Shown here in pieces: positions 49,527 to 56,762 of a stretch of DNA of 64,000 bases. Source of the stretch: Candidatus Eiseniibacteriota bacterium (GTDB lineage: Bacteria > Eisenbacteria > RBG-16-71-46); contig JACOSV010000045.1 in the NCBI GenBank assembly GCA_016178725.1, positions 51-64,050 on the forward strand, given 5' to 3'. Position 1 is the stretch's first letter, and the number at the start of each line of letters is the position of its first letter. The position numbers and the translations under genes were made by a program. The notes under the pieces were generated by a model. The model was not told the origin of the DNA and did no database searches. It worked only from the letters and a program-made list of their open reading frames with translations.

Positions 49527-51225
49527 GGGGCTCGCCGAGGCGCTGCGCGCCGCGGGCATCGACGTCGCGGACCGGGTGGAGCGGATCGAGCTCCAGATCC
49601 CGCGCGAGCCCGATCATGGTGACTGGACCACCAACGTCGCGCTGACGCTGGCGCGCGAGGCGAAACGGCCGCCGCGTGCGATCGCCGAGGCGGTGGCGAA
49701 GGCGTTCCCGCTCGCGGGCGGGCCGTTCGCGGCGGTCGAGGTCGCGGGCCCCGGGTTCCTCAACTTCCGCTACGGCGACGCGTTCCTCGCCGCCCTGCCG
49801 GCCCGGATCGCGTCCGACGGCACGACGTTCGGGCGCTCGGAGTTCGGCCGCGGCACCGCGTGTCTCGTCGAGTACGTGAGCGCCAATCCCACTGGCCCGC
49901 TCAACGTCGTCAACGCGCGCGCGGCCGCGGTCGGCTCGACGCTGGTGCGTCTGCTCGAGGCGATCGGCCACCGCGCCGAGGGCGAGTTCTACGTCAACGA
50001 CGCCGGCCGGCAGGTGGATCTGCTCGGCGCCTCGCTCGCGGCGCGGTTCGCCGAGCGCGCCGGGATCGCCCGCGCATTCCCGGAAGACGGTTACCAGGGC
50101 GCCTACCTCCGCGATCTCGCCGCGGCGCTGCCCGAGGCGGAAGCACGCGCGGCGCTCGCGCGGCCGGACGGCACGGCGTGGTTCCGCGACGCGGCGCTCG
50201 AGCGCGTCATCGAGTGGCAGCGCCGCGACCTCGAGGCGTACGGCGTCACGTTCGCGCGCTGGTTCCGCGAGTCGTCGCTGCACGCGTCGGGTGCCGTGGA
50301 CGAGACGCTGCGCGCGCTCGAGGCGCGCGATGTCGTCTACCGCGCGGCGCGGCCCGAGGTCGGCGGCGACGAGGACGAGCCCGAGGCGGCGCAGGGCGAG
50401 GCGACGTGGCTGCGCACCTCGCGCTTCGGCGACGAGAAGGACCGCGTGCTGGTCCGCGCCAACGGCGTGCCGACCTACCTGCTGCCCGACATCGCCTACC
50501 ACCGCGACAAGCGCGCGCGCGGGTTCCGCCACGGGATCGACATCTGGGGGCCCGACCATCACGGCCACATCACGCGCATGCAGGCGGCACTCGCGGCGCT
50601 CGGCGCGGAGCCCGACTTCCTCGAGATCCTGATCGCCCAGCAGGTGAATCTCCTGTCGGGCGGCCAGCCGGTGAAGATGAGCAAGCGGGCCGGCGAGTTC
50701 ATCACGCTGCGCGATCTGATGGACGACGTCGGCGCCGACTGCGCGAAGTTCTTCTTCCTCATGCGCTCGACCAGCGCGCACCTCGATTTCGATCTTGACC
50801 TCGCCAAGCGCCAGAACGACGAGAACCCGGCGTTCTACGTGCAGTACGCGCACGCGCGCATCGCCTCGGTGTTGCGCTACGCGGCCGAGCGCGGCCTCGC
50901 CGCCTCCGGCGAGGCGACGCCCTCGGCCGAGCTCGAGATCCCGGAGGCGCGGGCGCTGATCCGCAAGCTCGCCACCTTTCCCGAGCTCGTGCGCGGCGCC
51001 GCGGTCATGCGCGAGCCGCATCGCGTGCCGACGTATCTCGTCGAGACCGCGGCGGCCTTCCACCGCTTCTATCACGCGTGCCGCGTCGTGACCGACGACG
51101 CCGCCCGCTCGCGCGCGCGCCTCGCGATCGCCGCGGCGGCGCGGCAGGTGATCGCGAACGGCCTCGCGCTGATGGGCGTCTCGGCGCCGGAGCGGATGGA
51201 GCGGGCCGCGGAGGCCGCGACGTGA
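49504..51225 (+). CDS. argS: arginine-tRNA ligase
   Basis: HGD, AGPGFLN, SANPTGP, KMSKRAG, YVQYAHAR, terminal APERM. Confidence 0.95.
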   Translation: MVWPTLTRGLAEALRAAGIDVADRVERIELQIPREPDHGDWTTNVALTLAREAKRPPRAIAEAVAKAFPLAGGPFAAVEVAGPGFLNFRYGDAFLAALPARIASDGTTFGRSEFGRGTACLVEYVSANPTGPLNVVNARAAAVGSTLVRLLEAIGHRAEGEFYVNDAGRQVDLLGASLAARFAERAGIARAFPEDGYQGAYLRDLAAALPEAEARAALARPDGTAWFRDAALERVIEWQRRDLEAYGVTFARWFRESSLHASGAVDETLRALEARDVVYRAARPEVGGDEDEPEAAQGEATWLRTSRFGDEKDRVLVRANGVPTYLLPDIAYHRDKRARGFRHGIDIWGPDHHGHITRMQAALAALGAEPDFLEILIAQQVNLLSGGQPVKMSKRAGEFITLRDLMDDVGADCAKFFFLMRSTSAHLDFDLDLAKRQNDENPAFYVQYAHARIASVLRYAAERGLAASGEATPSAELEIPEARALIRKLATFPELVRGAAVMREPHRVPTYLVETAAAFHRFYHACRVVTDDAARSRARLAIAAAARQVIANGLALMGVSAPERMERAAEAAT

Positions 51226-52247
51226 CGGCGCACCGGCCGGCGCGGGGCCGGCCCGCGTCGGGAGCGAAGCCGCGCCCGGGGCGCGCGGCCGCGCCGCACC
51301 GCCCAGCGCCCGCGGACATCCTGGTCGTCGGCTCGGTGGCGCTGGATTCGGTGCGCACGCCCTACGGCGAGGCCGAGGAGGCGCTCGGCGGCTCGGCGTC
51401 GTACTTCGCCTTCTCGGCGAGCCACTTCGCGCCCGTCAAGGTCGTGGCGGTGGTGGGCGAGGACTTCCCGGACACGCACCGCCGGCGCTTCACCGCACGC
51501 GGCGTGGACCTCACCGGCCTCGAGACCGCGGCCGGCCGCACGTTCCGCTGGCGCGGCGAGTACATGGCCGAGCTCGGCCACGCCCACACGCTCGAGACGC
51601 AGCTCAACGTGTTCTCGACGTTCCACCCGCGCCTCGACGCGCGGCATACCGGCTGCCCGTTCGTGTTCCTCGCCAACATCGATCCCGATCTCCAACTCGA
51701 GGTGCTGGGGCAGATGCGCGCGCCAAAGCTGGTCTTGAGCGACACGATGAACTACTGGATCGCGCGCAAGCCGGAACGCGTCGTGGACGTGCTGCGACGC
51801 GTCGACGTCGCGCTGCTCAACGAAGAGGAGGCCCGCGCGCTCTCGGGCGAGACGCAGCTCGCCGCGGCGGCGGACCGGCTCATCGAGGTCGGCGGCCGCG
51901 CGGTGATCATCAAGAAGGGCGAGCACGGCGCGCTCTTCCGCTCGCGCGAGGAGCTCGCGATCACGCCGGCGTTCCCGCTCGAGCGGCTGCGCGATCCGAC
52001 CGGCGCCGGCGATTCGTTCGCGGGTGGGTTCCTCGGCTGGCTCGCGCGCTGCGGCCGCATGGACCGCGAGGCGGTGCGCCAGGGGCTCGCCTGCGGCGCG
52101 GCGATGGCGTCGCTGGCGATCGAGGCGTTCAGTCCCGAGCGGCTGATCACGACGACACCGGAGGAGATCGCGCGGCGCGTGCGGGCGCTGCACGGAATGG
52201 TTTCGTTCGGTCTCGAGCCGCTATTCGACGATCGGAGCGGGGGATAG
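51222..52247 (+). CDS. PfkB family sugar kinase
   Basis: VGSVALD, LGGSA, DPTGAGDSFAGG. Confidence 0.92.
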   Translation: MTAHRPARGRPASGAKPRPGRAAAPHRPAPADILVVGSVALDSVRTPYGEAEEALGGSASYFAFSASHFAPVKVVAVVGEDFPDTHRRRFTARGVDLTGLETAAGRTFRWRGEYMAELGHAHTLETQLNVFSTFHPRLDARHTGCPFVFLANIDPDLQLEVLGQMRAPKLVLSDTMNYWIARKPERVVDVLRRVDVALLNEEEARALSGETQLAAAADRLIEVGGRAVIIKKGEHGALFRSREELAITPAFPLERLRDPTGAGDSFAGGFLGWLARCGRMDREAVRQGLACGAAMASLAIEAFSPERLITTTPEEIARRVRALHGMVSFGLEPLFDDRSGG

Positions 52248-52309
52248 CCGGGTCCGCGAGGGGTGTGCTAGTCTGCCGACGTATCGCCCCCAGTCAAGGA
52301 GGTGCGGCC

Positions 52310-53092
52310 CTGACCCTCGATACCTCGCGCATGTCATGGACGACCCGGGCGGAGGCCGCGATCCGCGCCCTCCGCGACGTCGACGGAGCCACGATCCAGC
52401 TCGAAGGGGACGAGATCCGCGAGATCCACGTCCTGACCCATTCGAAGCGCCCGGCGAAGCAGATCGTCCGCGATGTCCAGACCGTGCTCATGACGCTGTT
52501 CAACCGCTCATTCGATTACCGCGTCGTCTCGGTCGCCTACACGAAGAGCGGTGAGGGCGGATCGGACCGCGCGCCCACCCCGGGCGGTGCGGCCGCTGCG
52601 AGTGACGCGCGCGTGATGGACCAACCGCGCGAGGCGCGCGGCGACTCCGACTTCGAAACCGAGTCCGCCGAGCGCATCCGCTTCGCCAGCGTCAATCTGT
52701 TCGTCTCCGGGCCGCGCACGCAGGCGCAGGTCGAGCTCCGCTGGAAGGGGCTCGCGCGCATGGGCAGCGCCTCCGGATGGAGCTCGCGCGACGGCGCCCA
52801 CCCGCTGATCGCGCAGGCGACGCTCGCCGCGGTCCAGGAGTTCCTCGCCGGTGAGACCGCGTTCAACGTGCAGGCGGTCGAGTTCGTGCGCATGGGCAGG
52901 CGCCGGGTGGCGCTGGTCGCGCTCGCGCTGCTCGCCGGCCGCGAAGAGCGTCCGCTCTTCGGCAGCTGCGCCGTGGAGCAGGACGCGCAGCAGGCCGTGG
53001 TGCTGGCGACGCTCGCGGCACTCAACCGCGTGATCGGCGGTCTGCCGACGCGCGAGCCGACCGAATACGTGTTGAGACCGACATCCAACTAG
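52310..53092 (+). CDS. hypothetical protein (C-terminal halves reminiscent of LeuA allosteric domain)
   Basis: SD AAGGAGGTG 5 nt before in-frame CTG 52310 (alternative ATG 52331); EIHVL..KQIVRDVQ; QATLAAV and LATLAALNR. Confidence 0.8.
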   Translation: MTLDTSRMSWTTRAEAAIRALRDVDGATIQLEGDEIREIHVLTHSKRPAKQIVRDVQTVLMTLFNRSFDYRVVSVAYTKSGEGGSDRAPTPGGAAAASDARVMDQPREARGDSDFETESAERIRFASVNLFVSGPRTQAQVELRWKGLARMGSASGWSSRDGAHPLIAQATLAAVQEFLAGETAFNVQAVEFVRMGRRRVALVALALLAGREERPLFGSCAVEQDAQQAVVLATLAALNRVIGGLPTREPTEYVLRPTSN

Positions 53093-53193
53093 GAGGAAGC
53101 GGAGCGAGCCATCCCATCCATTGATGCGAAGCGGACCCACCTGCAGGAGTCATACGTTTCCCAGCAGAATCCGTGAAGAAGGAGGTGGGCTCT

Positions 53194-53247
53194 GTGGACG
53201 ATCTCATCATCGAGATCATCAACTTCCTGGGAAAGGCCGGCTGGTAA
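53194..53247 (+). CDS. 17-aa micropeptide MDDLIIEIINFLGKAGW
   Basis: SD AAGGAGGTG 6 nt upstream of GTG; mostly C/G-ending codons; TAA stop. Confidence 0.7.
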   Translation: MDDLIIEIINFLGKAGW

Positions 53248-53355
53248 TCAGGCCACCCTCGGAATGATGCGTTAGGGATCAGGCTCCAAGATGGGTGTCG
53301 GTCTCGTTTCTCTTTCCGAATCGTCCCTTCCGATCCTTCCAGGCGACAGGAGCTC

Positions 53356-54684
53356 GTGAGCGCATCGCTCGCCCCCCGCCACCCGCGCCTCTTCCGCGTC
53401 TACTACGCCGCGGTCGTCGCGGCCGCGGTGGTCGCCTTCGTCGCCTTCACGCCGTCCGCCGGTCGCGTGCCGCCGGCGACCGCGATCGTCGTCCTCCTGC
53501 TCATGGGGTTCAGCGAGGCCACCGCCGTGCCGCTGCCGGGCGGCGGCTATGTCTCGGTCGGCGCCGTGCTCGACCTCGCGTGCCTCATCATCCTCGGCCC
53601 GGTCGTCACCGCGTGGCTCAACGTCGTCGCGACGCTGCTCACGCAGCTCGTCGTGCTGCGGAAGCCGCTGGTCAAGGTCGTCCACAACATGGCCATCTTC
53701 GGCCTCACGGCTTTCGCGGCCGGGTTCGCGTTCATCGCCGCCGGGGGCCGGCCGGGATCGCTCGATCTGCGCCGCGACCTGCCGGCGCTGCTGGCCTGCG
53801 GCGCCGTCTACTTCCTCTGCAACTCGGTGTTCGTCTCGACGGTCATCGGCCTCACGACCGGCCCGAGCATCTGGCGCTCGTGGCAGCGCACGTTCCTGAA
53901 CGGGCTGCTGCACCACCTTTCGTTCATCGCGCTCGGCACGCTGATCGCCGTCGTCTATCTGGGCGCCGGGCCGGTCGCCCTCGTGCTGTTCGCGATCCCG
54001 TTCCTCGTCGCCCGCCACTCGTTCCAGCTCTACGTCGAGATCCGCACCGACCTCAAGGACTTCGTCCGCGCGCTGGCCGAGGTGCTCGAGGAGGTCGATC
54101 CCTACACGCGCCAGCACTCGGTGCGCGTCTCGGTCTACGCCGTGCGCATCGCGCGCGGGCTGCGCATGAGCGAACGCGAGGTGGACGAGGTCGAGTACGC
54201 GGCGCTGGTGCACGATCTCGGCAAGATCGGCCCGCATCACCAGCACATTCTTCAGAAGCCGGGGTCGTTGTCGCACGAGGAGCAGCGCACGCTGCGCGGC
54301 CACCCGGCGGCGGGCGCCGAGATCGTGTCGCGCGTGCGGGCGCTGCGGCGCCCGGCCGAGATCGTGCGCAGCCACCATGAGCGCCCGGACGGGCGCGGTT
54401 ATCCGTTCGGTCTCATGAGCCGCGACGTGCCGCTCGGCGCCCGCATCCTGAACGTCGCCGACGCGTTCGACGCGATGACGTCGGACCGTCCGTACCGCCG
54501 CGCGCTCTCGGTGGACTCGGCGCTGCGCGAGCTGAAGCAGGGGGCGGGCACGCAGTTCGACCGCGATGTGGTCGAGTGCGTGCTGCGGCTCCAGGCCGCG
54601 GGACAGTTCCCGCTCGTCCCGAGCCCGAGCAGCGAGGAGTTGCGGCTGCTGCGGCTCCACCCGCGCAAGGCGCAGCGCGCCTGA
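53356..54684 (+). CDS. membrane-anchored HD-GYP domain phosphodiesterase
   Basis: about 6-7 N-terminal TM segments; DPYTRQHS, HDLGKIG, HHERPDGRGYP, VADAFDAMTSDRPYR, GTQFD. Confidence 0.92.
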   Translation: MSASLAPRHPRLFRVYYAAVVAAAVVAFVAFTPSAGRVPPATAIVVLLLMGFSEATAVPLPGGGYVSVGAVLDLACLIILGPVVTAWLNVVATLLTQLVVLRKPLVKVVHNMAIFGLTAFAAGFAFIAAGGRPGSLDLRRDLPALLACGAVYFLCNSVFVSTVIGLTTGPSIWRSWQRTFLNGLLHHLSFIALGTLIAVVYLGAGPVALVLFAIPFLVARHSFQLYVEIRTDLKDFVRALAEVLEEVDPYTRQHSVRVSVYAVRIARGLRMSEREVDEVEYAALVHDLGKIGPHHQHILQKPGSLSHEEQRTLRGHPAAGAEIVSRVRALRRPAEIVRSHHERPDGRGYPFGLMSRDVPLGARILNVADAFDAMTSDRPYRRALSVDSALRELKQGAGTQFDRDVVECVLRLQAAGQFPLVPSPSSEELRLLRLHPRKAQRA

Positions 54685-55709
54685 TGCGCTACCGCGACGC
54701 CGGCGTCGACGTGGCGCGCGCCGACCGGCTGAAGCGGGGGATCGGCGCGGCGATCCGCGCCACCTGGGGGCCCGGGGTACGGCCGATCCCGGGTGGCTTC
54801 GCCGGCGTGACGACCTGGCCCGCGGCCGACGGCGCGCTGCTCGCCGCGACGATGGACGGCGTCGGCACCAAGCTCCACGTCGCGATGGCGGCGGGCCGCG
54901 TCGGCGACGCGGCGGCGGACCTCGTCTACCACTGCGCGAACGATCTTCTCGTCCACGGCGCCCGTCCGCTCGCGTTTCTCGACTACGTCGCGCAGGCGCG
55001 GCTCGAGCCCGGAGTGATCGAAGCGGTCGTGGCCGGGCTCGCCCGAGCGTGCGGCGACGTCGGGGCGGCGCTCCTCGGCGGCGAGACGGCGGAGATGCCG
55101 GACACCTACGTCGCCGGCGTCGTCGACGTCGCCGGCTGCATGATCGGCGTCGCCGATCCGCGTCGATTGCTCGACGGAAGCGCCGTGCGCCCCGGCGACG
55201 CGCTGCTCGGGCTCGCGTCGGCGGGCCTCCACACCAACGGGTTCTCGCTGGCCCGCCGCGTGCTGGAGACGTCGGGCCTGACGCTCGACAGCCCGCTCCC
55301 GGGCGGCGCGGGCGAGACCGTAGGCGAGGCCCTGCTCGCGCCGCATCGCTGGTACGGCCCGGCGCTCACGCCCGTGATCGCGGCGGGGCGCGTGCACGCG
55401 CTCGCGCACGTCACCGGCGGCGGCATCGCCGGCAACGTCGTGCGCATCCTCCCCGAAGGCTGCCACGCGCGTGTCGTCGCGCGCGCATGGGCGAGGCCCG
55501 CGCTCGTGCGCTGGATCGTCGAGGCGGGCGCCGTGCCCGAGGACGACGCGCGCGAGGCGCTGAATCTCGGCATCGGCATGGTGCTGGTGTCGGCTCGCGA
55601 AGGGAAGGACGCGCTCACGCGCGACCTCGAGCGCGCCGGCGAGCGCGTGTTCGCGATCGGCGAGGTCGTGAGCGGCGCGCGCGGCGTGACGTGGACGGAG
55701 GGGGCATGA
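54684..55709 (+). CDS. purM: phosphoribosylformylglycinamidine cyclo-ligase
   Basis: YRDAGVD, DGVGTK, GGETAEMP, GLHTNG, HVTGGG. Confidence 0.95.
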   Translation: MRYRDAGVDVARADRLKRGIGAAIRATWGPGVRPIPGGFAGVTTWPAADGALLAATMDGVGTKLHVAMAAGRVGDAAADLVYHCANDLLVHGARPLAFLDYVAQARLEPGVIEAVVAGLARACGDVGAALLGGETAEMPDTYVAGVVDVAGCMIGVADPRRLLDGSAVRPGDALLGLASAGLHTNGFSLARRVLETSGLTLDSPLPGGAGETVGEALLAPHRWYGPALTPVIAAGRVHALAHVTGGGIAGNVVRILPEGCHARVVARAWARPALVRWIVEAGAVPEDDAREALNLGIGMVLVSAREGKDALTRDLERAGERVFAIGEVVSGARGVTWTEGA

Positions 55710-55727
55710 GCCCCGGAGGACGACGCG

Positions 55728-56762
<1,035 letters not shown>

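Follow-up and report, generated by a model that had tools for sequence, protein, structure and literature searches.

Some small membrane proteins act on sensors or become part of membrane complexes; those described, among them MgrB (which pairs with PhoQ), SafA, KdpF and CydX, are shorter than 50 residues, form one hydrophobic helix, and have genes that adjoin those of the sensor or complex or share their regulation. In a second group of described systems, which includes leader ORFs whose translation frees a downstream ribosome-binding site from a helix (ermC/ermB, cat/cmlA, secM-secA, mifM-yidC2) and peptides that stall at termination (TnaC and PepNL), a short, strongly initiated open reading frame (ORF) lies within an upstream RNA fold and carries a conserved C-terminal residue beside its stop codon. 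Here we describe a 17-residue micro-ORF that has likenesses to both groups. It is located in a 64,000-nucleotide (nt) stretch of DNA from Candidatus Eiseniibacteriota bacterium (GenBank assembly GCA_016178725.1, contig JACOSV010000045.1, positions 51 to 64,050 of the forward strand), which we refer to as the window, and it occupies a 263-nt spacer between a 275-codon ORF that we call up275 and a 442-codon ORF for a MASE9/HD-GYP protein, all on the + strand. The micro-ORF is a real gene, the Eisenbacteria form of a micro-protein family. The reading of its function that we favor, to which we would give a probability of roughly 40%, is that it encodes a micro-protein, associated with the membrane and under riboregulation, whose target is the neighboring MASE9 sensor. 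The micro-ORF has no sequence relation to MgrB, SafA, KdpF or CydX, its predicted helix is too short for a membrane span, and its partner would be a MASE9 phosphodiesterase. (We know of no small-protein partner described for a MASE9 phosphodiesterase of cyclic di-GMP (c-di-GMP).) It also differs from the leader ORFs listed above, in that no logic of antibiotic response or secretion is evident at the locus, the RNA fold in the window does not hold the downstream ribosome-binding site, and the end module of the peptide family is repeated in some peptides and is found, too, on unrelated proteins. A literature search whose coverage stopped short of subscription journals returned no description of the module.

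The original prediction, made from the letters of the window alone, was of an unannotated 17-residue micropeptide with a Shine-Dalgarno (SD) word, a 6-nt spacer and a GTG start. We confirm each of these elements and find the frame to be both conserved and coding. In particular, AAGGAGGTG occupies positions 53179-53187, the conserved SD word extending as GGG to 53189, and is followed, after 6 nt, by GTG at 53194-53196; from there, 16 more codons for amino acids lead to TAA. The product is an acidic amphipathic helix followed by G-K-A-G-W (for peptides of family f1, that of the window, the computed mean hydrophobicity H is 0.57 and the hydrophobic moment muH 0.48), and the micro-ORF is itself the sole GKAGW-stop site in this metagenome-assembled genome (MAG). 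The DNA of positions 52900-53500 matches 38 of 41 related genomes, and many of the family-level matches end exactly at the micro-ORF stop. A tblastn search recovered the 24-residue open frame in 20 of 20 family-level loci, each of which has a AGGAGGTG word, a spacer of 5-9 nt, a GTG or ATG start and an ORF of 12-19 codons that ends in G/T/S-K/R-A/G-G-W-stop; a scan of the same 24-residue frame against NCBIfam returned 0 families at E<=10. Frame, start and SD, which the original prediction had expected to be kept in relatives, are present in 55 loci (42 distinct DNAs), where an SD of GGAGGTG and a spacer of 5-11 nt precede an ATG or GTG and an ORF that ends in W-stop. (Locus counts here and below include kin that are not independent, and they overstate the number of evolutionary events; all of the genomes are MAGs of uncultured organisms, and an unpublished one, G026, is included among the genomes tallied and among the 42 distinct ORFs, although none of our claims depends on it or on a second unpublished genome, G264.) A search for sequencing runs listed four, all of DNA and from one groundwater study, with no RNA run among them.

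The pattern of substitution within the frame was as expected for a coding sequence. Over the last 13 codons of 29 ORFs of 16-19 codons, entropy at the first, second and third codon positions was 0.83, 0.34 and 1.06, respectively, and was thus highest at the third, and the pooled ratio of nonsynonymous to synonymous change (pN/pS) was 0.51 in frame versus 1.03 and 2.67 when the reading frame was shifted. At five hydrophobic positions of the same 29 ORFs, the second base is always T. The last five codons hold G-K/R-A-G-W with third bases that vary, such that all four Gly codons and all four Ala codons occur, and so both the synonymous bias and the conserved terminal GW that had been anticipated for relatives are found. 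Moreover, changes in length are all in frame, over a range of 8 to 50 codons. From the recurrence of frame and SD, the entropy by codon position, the pN/pS ratios and the in-frame changes in length, we conclude that this 17-codon gene, although it lies below the annotation threshold, is under clear selection at the level of the protein.

The peptides vary considerably in form around a near-invariant C-terminal end, G-[KR]-x-G-W. Those of f1 are acidic amphipathic helices, whereas the forms in f2, f11, f13 and f16 are transmembrane-like, hydrophobic helices of 18-20 residues being found in other families. The f3 peptides have three D-G-K-x-G-W units and the f17 peptides two or three of S-G-G-H-x-W-W, so that the end module has been multiplied independently in two families, and in one closed genome the ORF has just 8 codons and is essentially the end module alone. 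The Trp is not always the last residue (f15 forms end one residue after it, and one f2 form ends five residues after it). What the forms share is a helix, then a basic residue, small residues and a Trp at or near the end, and these data would fit an end module that serves as the recognition element of a translated micro-protein. Two more specific accounts of the end were considered. A SecM-like arrest motif, suggested by a likeness to ...RAGP, was dropped, and recognition of a free W-COOH by a PDZ-type domain was weakened, in both cases because some peptides continue past the Trp and some have internal copies of the module.

Multiplication of the end module is also a feature of multi-core precursors, and the micro-ORF might accordingly specify the precursor of a small peptide product, such as a ribosomally synthesized and post-translationally modified peptide (RiPP), an unmodified signal or a cofactor precursor, with a helical leader and a C-terminal G-[KR]-x-G-W core. 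The threefold units of f3, the two- to threefold units of f17 and the 8-codon ORF would all suit such a precursor, as would the tandem gene copies in f18 described below, and multi-core RiPPs and streptide likewise have a leader-like N terminus, repeated C-terminal units or a Lys near a Trp. However, no gene for a radical-SAM enzyme, YcaO protein, lanthipeptide enzyme, P450, ATP-grasp enzyme, peptidase or transporter adjoins the ORFs in any context that we examined; the neighbors are instead PfkB, up275 and HD-GYP genes, a histidine kinase gene and lon, or, at the lipoproteins discussed below, diverse genes, and up275 resembles a ligand-binding regulatory domain rather than an enzyme. Streptide, in addition, has a K-x-x-x-W spacing and a radical-SAM/SPASM partner, whereas here K and W are two residues apart (K-x-x-W), and neither a maturase gene nor a radical-SAM gene lies near the micro-ORF. 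We therefore consider a precursor improbable, and the RiPP with a modified or cyclized Trp that had been proposed as one option finds no maturase-type gene in any context examined, although the repeated modules keep the idea of a core weakly alive.

Synteny ties the micro-ORF to its neighbors. PfkB, up275, micro-ORF and HD-GYP genes occur in this order in 20 of 20 family loci, apart from one in which PfkB is absent at a contig edge (19 of 20 for PfkB), and the placement of the micro-ORF, with its stop 108 nt before the HD-GYP start on the same strand in the window, is conserved. At the level of the order, the micro-ORF stands directly 3' of the up275 homolog in 10 of 10 readable loci and is followed by the HD-GYP gene in 9 of these, the tenth (L025) having an HD-GYP gene as well. 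When we inspected 20 loci downstream of up275 in other families, 11 had a comparable small ORF led by an SD (in f2, f5, f11, f13, f15 and f17), a pattern search found one GKAGW-stop at the expected place in f16, and with the filters used no such ORF was seen in the f4, f7 and f10 loci; a MASE9/HD-GYP gene follows in loci of f2, f4, f5, f15, f16 and f17. By its domains, the product of the downstream gene joins a membrane sensor and a phosphodiesterase of c-di-GMP in one chain (the MASE9 part of the window protein alone scores 32.5 bits against Pfam). The micro-ORF is thus in conserved genetic linkage with the gene for a membrane sensor, as would be expected of a small-protein partner of that sensor.

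On the reading that we favor, the long-range RNA helix P1 and a helix between the SD and an upstream anti-SD, both described below, would block access to the micro-ORF's very strong SD, and opening of the RNA would lead to synthesis of the peptide. The peptide would settle at the membrane interface, bind the intramembrane MASE9 domain of the neighboring gene's enzyme and tune its hydrolysis of c-di-GMP, following the logic of a small-protein regulator or subunit as in the case of MgrB and PhoQ. We favor action on MASE9 because linkage to MASE9 is the sole feature common to the window, the modules of Gemmatimonadota and the lipoprotein cluster of genus g80 (see below), and because the peptides are predicted to be membrane-seeking and intramembrane ligand binding is proposed for MASE9. 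The paper that defines MASE9 argues for such binding and names no ligand or partner (bioRxiv 10.1101/2021.11.05.467447). Of the functions raised by the original prediction, that of a small membrane-associated regulator is hence the one we prefer, given the amphipathic helix, the transmembrane-like relatives and the adjoining MASE9 gene. MASE9 is an orphan membrane sensor domain, and the micro-protein is a concrete candidate for the control of such phosphodiesterases.

Because the micro-ORF follows up275 in every module locus, in at least nine families of Eisenbacteria as well as in Gemmatimonadota, the peptide might instead work with up275, as its ligand, chaperoned partner or regulator. Helix P1 also ties the RNA of the ORF to the coding end of up275, and the regulatory fold of LeuA, which the C-terminal domain of up275 resembles, binds hydrophobic amino acids. 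The up275 profile matches 152 of 206 Eisenbacteria genomes, in every family but f18; there, GKAGW micro-ORFs are present, yet up275 is found in 0 of 41 genomes, and a partnership with up275 is in our view very doubtful. No match for up275 was found in Pfam or NCBIfam, and a comparison of the up275 and lipoprotein-domain sequences with those in the PDB gave nothing significant. An AlphaFold model of up275 (predicted local distance difference test (pLDDT) score 78) has Foldseek matches to LeuA (3fig) and LiCMS (3f6h) at E ~1e-5, and up275 may, as judged from this model, be a small-molecule sensor. (The start codon of up275 is uncertain, public records placing it ~22 codons later.) We rejected the idea that up275 is a double-stranded RNA-binding protein, the Foldseek matches to double-stranded RNA-binding domains having a root-mean-square deviation of 12-18 Å and a template modeling (TM) score <0.2, and so being unusable.

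The original prediction also described the spacer that holds the micro-ORF as low in GC. Its GC content of 0.52-0.61 is indeed below the ~0.65-0.80 of the flanking genes, but the spacer is not featureless, for it holds what comparison of relatives indicates is a conserved structured RNA that matches no Rfam family (a covariance-model scan of positions 52000-54500 with cmscan at E<=10 gave no match within 53093-53355 and four weak ones elsewhere). The principal element, P1, is a 12-bp long-range helix that in 52 aligned sequences is 95% paired, with 5 of 12 pairs changed on both sides (pair types being, for example, AU 25, GU 13, GC 11 and UA 3 at one position and AU 38 and GC 9 at another). 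RNAalifold also gives P1, and since every G-U pair has the sense orientation, P1 is a helix of + strand RNA. In the full tested structure, 89.4% of cells are paired, versus 39-50% after displacement of the 3' partners by 1-3 columns, and its covariation score was reached by 0 of 500 shuffles. A shorter helix, P1b, has 77% of cells paired and some double changes at all 4 pairs, in a part of the alignment that is loose. In P2, RNAalifold pairs the GC dinucleotides of the two AGCGRAGCG-type words around a 3x3 purine loop; since these pairs never vary, covariation speaks neither for nor against P2. The words themselves might make up an internal loop rich in purines or serve as repeated sites for a protein to bind, and some relatives have three or more GCGAA pentamers.

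A complement of the SD is present in 52 of 52 sequences, with a median duplex energy of -14.6 kcal/mol, and in 27 of the 52 the energy beats 95% of composition-matched shuffles; in alignment A3, 79% of cells of this anti-SD duplex are paired with no double change, paired changes in single loci being seen by eye. We regard the anti-SD:SD helix as likely, not proven. Over the 52 sequences, the mean fraction of T is 0.37 in the 12 nt just after P1, versus 0.19 elsewhere in the element. A simple scan found no canonical terminator and 0 sigma-70-like sites on either strand, in a phylum whose promoters may differ. The minimum-free-energy fold of the whole element recovers P1 (z -2.8), with inner pairs that differ from the conserved ones.

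The presence of a conserved structured RNA, with the SD-like word itself inside a helix, raises the question of whether the RNA alone is functional and the open frame a by-product. We think this exceedingly improbable: third positions vary while amino acids are conserved, the second base is invariant at hydrophobic positions, indels and module repeats are in frame, the spacing of SD and start codon is fixed across 55 loci, and the stop comes right after or near the Trp throughout.

A more serious rival, and the main one, is that the micro-ORF is a cis-acting leader whose translation, perhaps with a nascent-chain pause near the C-terminal Trp, remodels the long-range helix and in this way sets termination or initiation for the HD-GYP gene, the peptide being a by-product. 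This would suit a short ORF placed at a conserved position upstream of HD-GYP on the same strand, enclosed by a covarying long-range helix, with its SD masked by an anti-SD and a T-rich 12 nt beyond P1. Several features of the window are less easily accommodated. P1 stops 50 nt short of the HD-GYP start, the region from the micro-ORF stop into that start (53248-53385) folds alone no better than shuffles (z +0.82), and the micro-ORF stop lies 46 nt from the 3' arm of P1, beyond the reach of a terminating ribosome. The Trp is, moreover, not always last (f15, f2 and 8 of 22 Gemmatimonadota ORFs have it one or more residues from the end), the peptides are too short for their hydrophobic part to exit the ribosome tunnel before release, and triplicated end modules, transmembrane-like helices and a motif shared with lipoproteins would be unexpected in a leader. 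We consider a cis-acting leader possible, although on balance rather unlikely, and note that cis and trans roles are not mutually exclusive; were it correct, second-messenger enzymes would have in the micro-ORF a new class of riboregulator, one based on a leader ORF.

The module extends beyond Eisenbacteria. We scanned one genome per species across all prokaryotes for an SD followed by the end pattern and obtained 72 loci, comprising 41 syntenic modules, 10 micro-ORFs in another context and 21 loci without an ORF in unrelated taxa, which we take to be chance matches. Chance-match loci nevertheless led us to two genomes of Gemmatimonadota, each with one MASE9/HD-GYP homolog, and in both a 30%-identical up275 homolog lies at the same upstream position, the leader has GCGAAG/AGCGGAGC words similar to those of the window and a strong SD, and the MASE9/HD-GYP gene is preceded by a hydrophobic ORF of 22-23 codons that closes with W-stop. 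In a larger sample of 81 Gemmatimonadota genomes, 42 had a MASE9 match; 30 loci were examined, and 22 of these have an SD-led hydrophobic small ORF no more than 330 nt upstream of the MASE9 gene. Thirteen of the 22 ORFs end in W, seven in W plus one residue and one in W plus two, and one is without W. The module thus evidently occurs in at least two phyla, the GKAGW ending being its Eisenbacteria version. The architecture is the same in both phyla, but in the window the 3' arm is off the HD-GYP SD and the 5' arm is inside the end of up275, and the window peptide is acidic and GKAGW-ended whereas the Gemmatimonadota peptides are hydrophobic. In both Gemmatimonadota leaders, the 3' arm begins a few nt after the micro-ORF stop and contains the HD-GYP SD, an arrangement that a cis-acting leader fits at least as well, and the presence of the Trp at, or at most two residues from, the end in 21 of the 22 ORFs argues in the same direction.

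Within Eisenbacteria, the end module is also found away from the syntenic locus. Of 206 Eisenbacteria genomes, 104 have a match to a degenerate G-K-A/G-G-W-stop pattern, some with as many as 6 sites, whereas the reversed pattern has at most 2 sites per genome. The 10 ORFs in other contexts encode hydrophobic peptides of 19-22 residues, often as tandem pairs with their own SDs, and the tandem ORFs are followed by conserved hairpins, one of which has a GGGCGAACCCC apex, and by a terminator-like hairpin with a T run. In 5 of 6 loci examined, these micro-ORFs lie between the gene for a HAMP histidine kinase and lon, which is their position in f18. (Tandem pairs so placed are those of L082, L086, L089, L091, L100, L115, L121, L127 and L130, near position 1500 of each.) That tandem micro-ORFs and a strong hairpin-T run precede lon would again suit a cis-acting leader.

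Tandem copies, each with its own SD, are compatible as well with a membrane-active toxic peptide that is silenced by an mRNA fold, be it a type I toxin, a leaderless bacteriocin or a phenol-soluble modulin. Like the locus studied here, the hok and aapA1 mRNAs have a long-range helix that closes the 5' end on the 3' end, mask their SD and encode a hydrophobic product of very small size. A literature search with the five-residue motif gave one match, the tail of the class IIa bacteriocin enterocin HF, ...GGKAGWK, in which a Gly-rich hinge, a Lys and a Trp stand at the end of a membrane-inserting helix (PMC5041338). This likeness, which spans five residues, may be convergent or due to chance. The window form is acidic and has 17 residues, all of the peptides compiled here lack the YGNGV box and the double-glycine leader of class IIa bacteriocins, there is no disulfide, and the locus has no immunity or transport genes. 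The micro-ORF is, furthermore, single-copy in this genome and, as part of an operon-like cluster, strictly syntenic across two phyla, unlike mobile and patchy toxin loci, and no antisense partner was seen; a simple scan found no promoter-like site on the opposite strand, which is weak evidence in an uncultured phylum. A toxin seems to us very improbable.

A further 20 GKAGW sites (L135-L154) were chosen by the motif, so that the invariance of the end is in their case by construction. These yielded 18 C termini of long frames in 16 loci, most with a lipobox signal peptide, and in 16 of the 18 an H-F-S-x-Y stands shortly before the GKAGW or GKGGW end. The predicted lipoproteins have ~160-230 residues and end in H-F-S-x-Y, 2-8 residues and GKAGW-stop. 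Locus L136 provides two examples, at L136:1764-2450 and in a gene whose end is at L136:3890, as well as a third lipoprotein, which closes with GKPGW. A model of their C-terminal domain (pLDDT 84) matches ZU5 (3f59) and GAIN (4dlo, 9mqr) folds with a TM score of ~0.5. Such folds are known for autoproteolysis at H-F/L-S/T, and H-F-S in the GKAGW lipoproteins is what we take to be the autoproteolytic cleavage motif; the model suggests that the lipoproteins carry an autoproteolytic domain with a short conserved tail. They would thereby share with the autoproteolytic GAIN and ZU5 domains of adhesion G protein-coupled receptors (GPCRs), PIDD and UNC5, which keep a C-terminal peptide tethered, a fold and an H-F-S before the last strand and tail, although the hosts here are bacterial lipoproteins, the cleavage is predicted, and the likeness is not one of the window ORF. 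Were the module released after H-F-S as a short GKAGW-ended peptide, the lipoproteins would lend some weight to the precursor discussed above. In the genome of the window itself, which is 89% complete, one query did not find this lipoprotein family.

The neighbors of the lipoprotein genes are diverse, except in genus g80 of f18, where in 4 genomes GKAGW lipoprotein genes directly flank the gene for a standalone 256-residue MASE9 protein (28.6 bits against Pfam; 27% identical to the window MASE9, E 3e-9). The standalone MASE9 gene lies between, or right after, lipoprotein genes at L136:2470-3240, G170:C118, G172:C304 and L193:858-1610. The paralogs that had been anticipated near other sensor genes therefore do exist, as the tandem copies behind the HAMP histidine kinase and as the GKAGW lipoproteins beside standalone MASE9. 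The G-K-A-G-W module in this way ties together micro-ORFs, putatively autoproteolytic lipoproteins and MASE9 proteins, which were not formerly known to be related. A bolder extension, and a long shot, is that GKAGW-ended peptides are intramembrane, tethered-agonist-like ligands of MASE9, the micro-ORF product reaching it from inside and the lipoproteins, through autoproteolysis at H-F-S, from outside, with both setting the turnover of c-di-GMP; if true, this would be a bacterial analog of adhesion-GPCR tethered-agonist signaling joined to a micropeptide switch.

A number of observations weigh against action of the micro-protein on MASE9. In f18, an HD-GYP ortholog is present in 5 of 5 genomes with no GKAGW ORF within 1.5 kb, and the GKAGW micro-ORFs adjoin the histidine kinase gene and lon, not HD-GYP. 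The association of MASE9 with lipoproteins in g80 amounts to one evolutionary event and is unseen in genus g81. The lipoprotein tails are expected to be periplasmic and the micro-ORF product is without a signal peptide, which makes a common binding site on MASE9 topologically awkward. The window peptide, with ~11 hydrophobic and three acidic residues, is too short and too charged to span the bilayer. Finally, the Gemmatimonadota peptides differ strongly in sequence from those of Eisenbacteria, and the long-range helix in both Gemmatimonadota leaders, of 15-16 bp, takes up the HD-GYP SD in its 3' arm.

Table 1 Features of the micro-ORF locus in the window
Feature	Positions	Strand	Description
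PfkB-family kinase gene	51078..52247	+	Pfam PfkB, E 8.8e-26; first gene of the conserved cluster
up275	52265..53092	+	275-codon ORF; N-terminal alpha/beta part and C-terminal LeuA/citramalate-synthase regulatory-like domain
P1 5' arm, GAGACCGACATC	53074..53085	+	Within the last up275 codons; pairs with 53294-53305
P1b 5' side, GGAG	53092..53095	+	Overlaps the up275 stop codon; pairs with CUCC at 53284-53287
First AGCGRAGCG word, P2 5' side	53098..53106	+	Unvarying in 52/52
Second word, GCGRAGCG, P2 3' side	53126..53133	+	Unvarying in 52/52
Anti-SD, CCCACCT	53136..53142	+	Complement of AGGTGGG at 53183-53189
SD word, AAGGAGGTGGG	53179..53189	+	SD of the micro-ORF; GGAGGTG unvarying in 52/52 aligned sequences
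Micro-ORF	53194..53247	+	GTG start, 17 residues, TAA stop at 53245-53247
P1b 3' side, CUCC	53284..53287	+	Partner of GGAG at 53092-53095
P1 3' arm, GGTGTCGGTCTC	53294..53305	+	Complementary to 53074-53085
Pyrimidine/T-rich tract	53306..53317	+	Directly after P1
MASE9/HD-GYP (HD_5) gene	53356..54684	+	442 codons; Pfam HD_5 1.6e-35, MASE9 2.9e-07
Sigma-54 activator gene	55728-56762		Overlapped at its start by a 413-codon ORF

A gene for arginyl-tRNA synthetase is also found upstream, beyond up275. Downstream, a 413-codon ORF at 54566-55807 shares sequence with two genes, the HD-GYP gene at its end and the sigma-54 activator gene at its start, has no match in Pfam or NCBIfam, and may be a spurious high-GC frame. 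Lastly, three loci (L075, L096 and L101) have an Eisenbacteria-type module or peptide in MAGs labeled Saccharimonadaceae, Thermoanaerobaculia and Acidiferrales, taxon labels that likely reflect mis-binning or mislabeling.

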